From Erythrobacter sp. (GTDB lineage Bacteria; Pseudomonadota; Alphaproteobacteria; Sphingomonadales; Sphingomonadaceae), in the NCBI GenBank assembly GCA_043567175.1, contig CP121323.1:1382813-1446812 (forward strand): 64,000 nt of DNA. The letters run 5' to 3'. Positions 32,585-33,990 of the stretch are shown here, piece after piece. Position 1 is the stretch's first letter; every line of letters starts with the position of its first letter. The position numbers and the translations under genes were made by a program. The notes below the pieces were generated by a model. It made no database searches and had not been told where the DNA came from. It saw only the letters and a list, made by a program, of their open reading frames with translations.

Positions 32585-33142
32585 ATGACTCGACAGGAAC
32601 ACGTCTCCCCGGACGAGCCCGTTGGCAGAAAGCCAGAGGGACAAACGGGTCAGGTGAATAGAGGAGCACTCTACACCGCCGAGGAGCGCAAGCGCCGCGA
32701 CGAATCGGTCTGGACGCTCGTTCAGGGTGTGCTTGCCCCGCTGCAGTTTCTCGTCTTCATCGCCAGCCTCGCTTTGGTCATCCGCACGCTCGCCACCGGC
32801 GAAGGCGCATGGCTGGCCGATGCCTCCATCGTTTTGAAAACCTTCATCCTTTACACGATCATGGTCACCGGCTCGATCTGGGAGAAGGTGGTGTTCGGCA
32901 AATGGCTGTTTGCCCCGGCGTTCTTCTGGGAAGATGTTTTCTCGATGCTCGTACTGGCGCTGCACACCGCGTACCTGGTGATGCTGCTGGGAGCGATCGG
33001 CTCGCTTGAAGCGCGCATGACCGTCGCGCTCGCCGGCTACGCCGCCTACGTCGTGAACGCAGGCCAGTTCCTGTGGAAACTGCGCGTTGCGCGACTCGAA
33101 GGCGCACGCATCGAAGCGTCGCAGGGAGCCGTCCCCGCATGA
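32585..33142 (+). CDS. bchF: 2-vinyl bacteriochlorophyllide hydratase
   Basis: [27 protein letters not shown] and WEDVFSM. Confidence 0.97.
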
Positions 33143-33990
33143 ACCACGTCTCCACCATTCCAGGCTGTTCGACCCCCGAAACCTCCGACTCGGAGCGCCC
33201 CGTCCTGCGCGAGCGTGGACAGCGCGAAGTGTTCTGCGGGCTTACCGGTATCGTCTGGCTGCACCGCAAGATGCAGGACGCCTTCTTCCTGGTCGTCGGC
33301 TCGCGCACCTGCGCGCACTTGCTGCAATCGGCAGCCGGCGTGATGATCTTCGCGGAGCCGCGCTTTGCGACCGCGATCATGGAAGAGCGTGATCTTGCCG
33401 GAATGGTCGATGCGCAGGACGAACTCGACCGGGTCGTCACCCGCCTGCTCGAGCGCAGGCCCGACATCAAGACGCTGTTCCTCGTGGGCTCGTGCCCATC
33501 CGAGGTCATCAAGCTCGACCTTGCCAAGGCCGCCGAGCGCCTGGGCAAGCATTACATGCCCCGCGTGCGCATACTCAACTACTCGGGCAGCGGCATCGAA
33601 ACGACATTCACGCAAGGCGAAGATGCTTGCCTTACATCGCTGGTGCCGGAAATGCCCGCACTGGGCGCCGATGATGCCAGGAACCTGCTCATCGTGGGCT
33701 CTCTGCCCGACATCGTCGAAGACCAGTTCCTGCGCCTGTTCGACCAGCTCGGCATTGCCAATGTCGCCTCGCTGCCCTCGCGCAACGCCCGCGATCTGCC
33801 CGGTGTGGGCCCGAATACTCGCTATCTGCTCGCGCAGCCTTTCCTGGCGGAAACAGCCATGGCGCTCTCTGGACCTACGAAGGCCCTCCCCATGTGGGCG
33901 CGATGCGCATCGCCACCTCGATGGAAGGGGTGCACTACGTGCTGCATGCCCCCCAGGGAGACACCTACGCCGATCTGCTGTTCACCATGA
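33139..33990 (+). pseudogene. bchN: DPOR subunit N, C-terminally deleted and frameshifted into bchB sequence
   Basis: BchN-like to about 33868 ([33 protein letters not shown]). After about 243 codons the frame runs into about 40 out-of-frame residues and stops. Full BchN is about 420 aa. Confidence 0.88.

Follow-up and report, generated by a model that had tools for sequence, protein, structure and literature searches.

A 583-bp deletion joining bchN and bchB in the photosynthesis gene cluster of an Erythrobacteraceae member, with predicted loss of dark protochlorophyllide reduction

Introduction

Aerobic anoxygenic phototrophs (AAPs) typically synthesise bacteriochlorophyll (BChl) in the dark and repress its synthesis in the light. 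In plants that depend on the light-driven protochlorophyllide reductase (LPOR) only, and in some algae, the chlL, chlN and chlB genes have been lost or persist as pseudogenes, the dark enzyme (DPOR) being dispensable once LPOR carries the step.

LPOR is widespread in AAPs, including Erythrobacteraceae (PMC7947762), and in Dinoroseobacter shibae it is encoded on a 72-kb chromid (PMC4373377). LPORs from AAPs restore BChl in the light to a DPOR-deficient Rhodobacter capsulatus bchB mutant (PMC7947762). Since these enzymes are both common in AAPs and able to rescue such a mutant, a bypass of DPOR by LPOR is biochemically sound. One LPOR-bearing draft genome, that of the Gemmatimonadetes bacterium GCA_002737115.1, is apparently without BchN and BchB (PMC7947762 supplement). 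Phototrophy is scattered in Erythrobacter, and loss of photosynthesis cluster genes has been documented in the family (PMC4919336, PMC3338782). Here we describe a photosynthesis gene cluster in which bchN and bchB are fused out of frame by the absence of 583 nt, and we weigh the explanations for this lesion and its likely consequences for BChl synthesis.

Results

Gene content of the photosynthesis cluster

The window, by which we mean the whole 64,000-nt stretch of DNA analysed, has a G+C content of 62.8% and represents an Erythrobacteraceae photosynthesis gene cluster. Its genes run in the order bchI-D-O, crtC-D-F, bchC-X-Y-Z, pufB-A-L-M, tspO, bchP, pucC, bchG, ppsR, ppaA, bchF-N-B-H-L-M, lhaA, puhA-B-C, acsF, puhE, hemA and a cytochrome c gene. 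The closest sequences fetched for comparison were a JGI metagenome contig (L081) and GCA_020357715.1 (L082), with BchN identities of 93% and 91%, respectively. Family models were matched over their full length by bchI, bchD, bchO, crtD, bchC, bchX, bchY, bchZ, pufL, pufM and bchP, and likewise by pucC, bchG, bchF, bchL, bchM, lhaA, puhA, puhC, acsF, puhE and hemA. The lengths of ppsR, ppaA and bchH equal those of their L081 orthologues, and pufB, pufA and tspO are open reading frames (ORFs) of normal size. The whole crtC model is covered as well, but by an ORF with a long N-terminal extension. A preliminary description of this DNA had judged the bch, puf and puh genes outside the lesion to look intact, and the full-length model matches, L081-like lengths and normal-size ORFs bear this out. 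Three intact genes of the run that contains the lesion are as follows.

32585-33142, plus strand: bchF, intact, matching positions 1-138 of 139 of the Pfam BCHF model (E 9e-61); it opens the bchF-N-B-H-L-M run, and its stop codon overlaps the bchN start.
35437-39102, plus strand: bchH, intact, with Pfam CobN-Mg_chel and DUF3479 matches and a dN/dS of 0.048.
39120-40016, plus strand: bchL, encoding the DPOR iron protein, intact (298 aa; positions 3-265 of 271 of Fer4_NifH).

The longest ORF at crtC (13472-14677, minus strand) encodes 402 aa, but the match to the 278-position CrtC model is limited to residues 125-400. This ORF overlaps crtD (14311-15939, minus strand) by about 370 nt, and the true crtC start probably lies further downstream than that of the longest ORF. 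An 855-aa ORF at 52191-54755 (minus strand) matches pyridine-nucleotide disulfide oxidoreductases in residues 380-853 only, and its unmatched 380-residue N-terminal extension may be an over-long ORF call. Matches of a 296-aa ORF at 11505-12392 (minus strand) to cytochrome P450 models are confined to their C-terminal two thirds (NCBIfam positions about 128-365 of 395; Pfam p450 324-425 of 462); there is no room for the P450 N-terminus here because a methyltransferase gene begins 110 nt upstream, and the ORF may be a second truncated gene of the cluster region.

Divergence from L081 is uneven along the cluster. The pufL-pufM segment (window 23257-25032; L081 1-1777) is 95% identical in DNA sequence, compared with 84-87% for the remaining shared cluster; dS for pufM is 0.11, against 0.4-1.3 in its neighbours, and the PufM proteins are 99.7% identical. 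This pattern suggests that pufLM may have moved between lineages by recent recombination or transfer. The B12-binding regulator PpaA (ppaA/aerR, 31405-32334, minus strand) and TspO (25673-26188, minus strand), at 78% and 85% amino-acid identity to L081, are far more diverged than the surrounding enzymes (93-97%), with dN/dS still at about 0.1.

Structure of the bchN-bchB junction

Five features define the lesion.

33139-33867, plus strand: bchN 5' remnant, 243 in-frame codons from the ATG at 33139 to a last CTC at 33865-33867, after which the reading frame is lost.
33867/33868, plus strand: deletion junction, at which 583 nt present in relatives are missing and the frame is shifted.
33868-33990, plus strand: tail of the chimeric ORF, 40 out-of-frame residues ending at TGA 33988-33990 and overlapping the bchB coding sequence; the chimera is 283 aa long.
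33870-35447, plus strand: bchB remnant, opening at TGG 33870 and retaining residues 6 to the end, without the first five codons, the start codon or the ribosome-binding site.
33894-33905, plus strand: leftover in-frame bchB starts, GTG 33894 (codon 14) and ATG 33903 (codon 17), both inside the translated chimeric ORF.

Alignment by blastn places the two sides of the junction at positions 10729 and 11313 in both L081 and L082, so that exactly 583 nt are absent from the window, and a GTDB representative (L001) gives the same picture. The missing segment comprises 188 BchN codons, the bchN stop, a 3-nt spacer closely preceded by GGAGG, and 13 nt from the start of bchB (ATGCAGCTTTCCG); the bchB ribosome-binding site is gone together with the bchN-bchB spacer. 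Because 583 nt do not make up a whole number of codons, the bchN and bchB remnants lie in different reading frames, and the ORF that carries the bchN remnant and the tail spans 33073-33990. The preliminary description had reported that the BchN sequence runs directly and out of frame into the BchB N-terminus, and the reading frames, family models and blastn alignment agree. Its statement that the bchN stop, the bchB ribosome-binding site and the first bchB codons are gone is borne out against L081 and L082, and the loss of BchN residues that it put at about 180 is real but amounts to 188.

The bchN gene has lost its 3' 44%, keeping 243 of about 431 residues. The remnant matches positions 6-227 of 423 of NF002768 (E 1.7e-104), positions 1-216 of 407 of TIGR01279 and residues 16-235 of 428 of the solved chain 8vqh_A, and is 93% identical in amino-acid sequence to L081 BchN. 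No BchN of full length (about 420-440 aa) is encoded at the locus. All 74 relatives extracted have a BchN of 419-443 aa, and the other 119 top database matches are 417-478 aa long, except for four shorter ones (272-339 aa) on contigs of 1-2 kb. With relatives uniformly full length and the short exceptions confined to such small contigs, the truncated BchN is not a natural short form.

The surviving bchB sequence covers positions 6-511 of 512 of TIGR01278 (E 3.8e-186) and residues 6-534 of the solved chain 9buo_B. In place of an intact N-terminus (MQLSVWTYEGPP) with its own start and ribosome-binding site, the sequence begins at codon 5/6, and there is no bchB start codon before codon 14. The only purine-rich stretch nearby, GAAGG, ends about 10 nt before GTG 33894, and reading of the sequence reveals no well-spaced Shine-Dalgarno element at either GTG 33894 or ATG 33903. 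The translations retain the three Cys motifs of BchN, including GSCPSEV, as well as GDTYAD and ASCTAEL of BchB, in line with the preliminary description for the BchN Cys motifs and GDTYAD; from solved structures we take the BchN Cys and the BchB Asp and Cys residues to be ligands in the NB cluster.

Two other origins for the junction were considered. The missing BchN C-terminus was not found elsewhere in the 64-kb window, and a rearrangement that moved it was rejected on the absence of any displaced piece from that stretch. A programmed -1 frameshift producing a BchN(1-243)-BchB fusion was also rejected: by inspection, GCGCTCTCTGG does not contain a canonical X XXY YYZ slippery heptamer, and such a fusion would still be without the BchN C-terminal domain.

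Integrity of the assembly at the junction

The exact 283-aa chimeric protein (P0001) is present in a public protein collection as a singleton from NCBI, encoded on a 3,500,668-bp contig on which the BchL of the window is also found. Because this protein is on record there with its out-of-frame tail, the deletion belongs to a deposited, essentially closed genome. In L081, L082 and L001, the longest word common to both breakpoints within 60 nt on either side is 7-9 nt long and out of register, leaving the junction essentially without microhomology; with no repeat at the breakpoints of relatives, collapse by an assembler is unlikely. No frameshift was detected in the other cluster genes checked against family models, the P450 fragment at 11505-12392 being the sole other short gene, which argues for a consensus of high quality.

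These observations bear on the reading that bchN and bchB of the organism are intact and that the junction reflects an error of assembly or consensus, or else a deletion carried by only a fraction of the sequenced culture. In its favour, only one assembly carries the junction, and the perfectly preserved remainder of the DPOR genes would be equally expected. The exact junction gave no match in genome_contigs or metagenome_contigs, which, as genome_contigs lacks the source species (best BchB identity 88%), says only that the allele was not seen in any other genome sampled. Against an artefact stand the breakpoints of relatives, which share no in-register repeat able to collapse 583 nt, the quality of the consensus, which is free of frameshifts in the cluster genes checked, and the 3.5-Mb contig itself, which is a finished-grade assembly. 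An assembly gap, one of the options raised in the preliminary description, also sits poorly with the deposition of the chimeric protein, and overall we regard an intact bchN-bchB in the organism as unlikely.

Selection on the remaining DPOR genes

To date the lesion, we examined selection on the surviving DPOR sequence. Between the window and L081 (dS about 0.55), dN/dS is 0.067 for the 5' part of bchN, 0.070 for bchB and 0.049 for bchL, and other cluster genes range from 0.013 to 0.149. The comparison of dN/dS that the preliminary description had proposed for bchL and bchB, extended to the bchN remnant, places the three DPOR genes (0.049-0.070) within the spread of their neighbours. Between L081 and L082, in both of which the genes are intact, the corresponding values are 0.070, 0.079 and 0.044. 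When amino-acid changes in the DPOR genes are polarised with L082, 28 are specific to the window and 22 to L081 (p = 0.48), and the ratio of amino-acid to synonymous changes in these genes is no different from that of other genes (Fisher p = 0.18). Relaxed selection on the remaining DPOR genes, as expected if LPOR had long carried the step, is not seen.

Conserved positions lead to the same picture. Among columns that are at least 97% conserved in 73-74 relatives, which we term near-invariant, none is changed in the window (0 of 230 in BchB, 0 of 114 in the BchN remnant and 0 of 170 in BchL; 0 of 514 in total), and intact relatives have a median of 0-1 changes at such columns, with maxima of 6-8. 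The earlier view of bchL as intact is upheld by both its unaltered columns and its Fer4_NifH match (3-265 of 271). Since no change is found at 514 constrained codons, any period of neutral drift would, by rough estimate, be limited to about dS < 0.003, less than 1% of the branch to L081. The lack of drift in the surviving DPOR sequence indicates that the deletion is either very recent or an artefact.

These results bear on whether bchN and bchB could be old pseudogenes inside a long-decaying cluster. Phototrophy has often been lost in the family, and the P450 fragment at 11505-12392 hints at some gene decay, both of which would fit such a history. The bchN remnant, bchB and bchL are nonetheless under purifying selection indistinguishable from that in intact relatives, no conserved residue is altered, and no bch, puf or puh gene apart from bchN and bchB is shortened, making long decay highly improbable. 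The possibility of a very recent loss-of-phototrophy mutant, another option of the preliminary description, is the one favoured by the absence of both relaxed selection and damaged conserved residues.

Search for LPOR

We searched for a gene that could replace DPOR, namely one for LPOR, an SDR of the TIGR01289 class, using as queries four Erythrobacteraceae LPOR sequences from the PMC7947762 supplement. Within the 64-kb window, tblastn with these queries found no LPOR (best E-value 0.13), and none of the window ORFs has an SDR glycine motif or an SDR family match. Further searches assigned contigs through cluster representatives only, such that plasmid copies or copies missed by gene calling would escape, and they placed no LPOR on the 3,500,668-bp contig, either among the 120 clusters listed by an LPOR profile search of the protein collection (down to 593 bits, the list extending to more distant Polymorphobacter and Sandarakinorhabdus proteins) or among the 120 matches listed by a search based on the LPOR P0199 (down to 72% identity). 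The members of ten multi-member NCBI LPOR clusters were inspected as well, and all lie on other contigs.

P0199 itself (MEM1197263.1) has an accession that falls between those of a BchN 87% identical to that of the window (MEM1196724.1) and a BchL (MEM1197483.1). Judging from this adjacency of accessions, LPOR is probably present in near relatives of the window, and this makes a bypass more likely a priori. A second BchL (MEM1196727.1) falls in the same accession block as P0199, P0016 and P0130, proteins of metagenome-assembled genomes (MAGs) that are related to the window, and its presence reflects either two related strains binned together or adjacent MAGs.

An LPOR encoded elsewhere, for example on a plasmid, would make the organism an LPOR-only phototroph, in which the deletion is real and BChl is made only in the light. 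The wide distribution of LPOR in Erythrobacteraceae and other AAPs and its rescue of a bchB mutant in the light speak for this possibility (PMC7947762), as do the intact remainder of the cluster and the MAG close to the window that, by accession adjacency, probably has P0199. The proposal in the preliminary description that BChl is made through LPOR only is left unsupported, the window being free of LPOR and SDR genes and no LPOR lying on the 3,500,668-bp contig among the matches listed or in the ten clusters opened. Moreover, bchL and bchB are undecayed, so that sole reliance on LPOR would have to be brand new; a light-only step is awkward for organisms that synthesise BChl in the dark; and polarity on bchH, bchL and bchM is possible. 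We consider LPOR-only phototrophy in this strain decidedly unlikely. Slightly less probable again is the fuller version, in which a natural purple-bacterial phototroph has just lost DPOR and makes BChl solely via a horizontally acquired LPOR located off the main chromosome; if true, this strain would be the first closed-genome DPOR-to-LPOR switch caught at its first step. The preliminary description knew of no LPOR-only case in a purple bacterium; a draft genome with LPOR but apparently without BchN and BchB is already on record in the PMC7947762 supplement.

Discussion

We conclude that the window probably carries a real and very recent 583-bp deletion, and hence a fresh knockout of DPOR in what is predicted to be a loss-of-phototrophy mutant. 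In the sequence of events that we propose, a deletion with essentially no junction homology would have taken the 3' 44% of bchN, the spacer together with the ribosome-binding site of bchB, and the first 13 nt of that gene. Going by the (BchN-BchB)2 architecture of the solved structures matched (8vqh_A, 9buo_B), no functional NB protein, the catalytic component of DPOR, should be able to form. BchL, though intact, would be left without a partner, and the dark reduction of protochlorophyllide (Pchlide) to chlorophyllide would be blocked. With DPOR broken and no LPOR gene found, the strain is predicted to accumulate or excrete Pchlide and to make little or no BChl.

The lesion may also reach beyond bchN and bchB. 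The bchH start (35437) overlaps the bchB stop (35447) by 11 nt, and bchH translation may be coupled to that of bchB; because of this overlap, expression of bchH, bchL and bchM may fall through polarity. The deletion could date from a time in nature not long before the strain was isolated, or from its cultivation, and may represent the onset of the kind of cluster decay often seen in Erythrobacteraceae.

Several consequences follow for the use of this genome. Its bchN and bchB should be annotated as disrupted, and a genome-based call of the organism as an AAP would be wrong or at least uncertain. The locus offers a clean snapshot of a first lesion in an otherwise perfect cluster, in a family with repeated loss of phototrophy. 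If the organism does have an LPOR, perhaps plasmid-borne, it would serve as a natural system for asking whether LPOR alone sustains BChl synthesis in an AAP.

The DPOR genes of the window do not count as a functional DPOR set, as two of the defining features fail, namely a full-length BchN and a bchB start with its N-terminus. Nor is the strain classed as an LPOR-only phototroph, because no LPOR turned up in the window, or on the 3.5-Mb contig among the matches listed, and selection is not relaxed. LPOR-only plants and algae have LPOR and show old decay of their DPOR genes; unlike theirs, the DPOR genes of the window are still fully constrained. A described Erythrobacter with a truncated bchN was not found in the literature searched.

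Among known systems, the lesion is like the laboratory DPOR mutants of R. capsulatus (a bchB deletion, and the Pchlide-producing ZY5) in the loss of a DPOR component; in those mutants the pathway stops at Pchlide, and BChl returns only with LPOR and light (PMC7947762). In contrast to these engineered strains, the deletion in the window is spontaneous, affects two genes and leaves no scar or marker, and its phenotype is predicted. The window also resembles D. shibae, Erythrobacter litoralis DSM 8509 and Erythrobacter (Porphyrobacter) dokdonensis in family-level host and cluster architecture (PMC7947762, PMC4373377). These LPOR-bearing AAPs show that LPOR can serve the BChl pathway, but they keep bchL, bchN and bchB beside it, whereas the window has a broken DPOR, and an LPOR was not detected. 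Like the Gemmatimonadetes draft GCA_002737115.1, it combines the reaction-centre genes of an anoxygenic phototroph with an NB protein that seems to be missing; that genome is a fragmented and possibly incomplete MAG, whereas the break described here can be read base by base on a 3.5-Mb contig, again with no LPOR found. Finally, the gene losses of Erythrobacteraceae and Citromicrobium likewise involve patchy phototrophy and cluster genes lost over time (PMC4919336, PMC3338782). Those cases are whole-cluster or multi-gene losses of the distant past, and the window differs from them in having a single lesion in an otherwise pristine cluster. The deletion is a further case of a known type of event, the inactivation of genes within a photosynthesis gene cluster.
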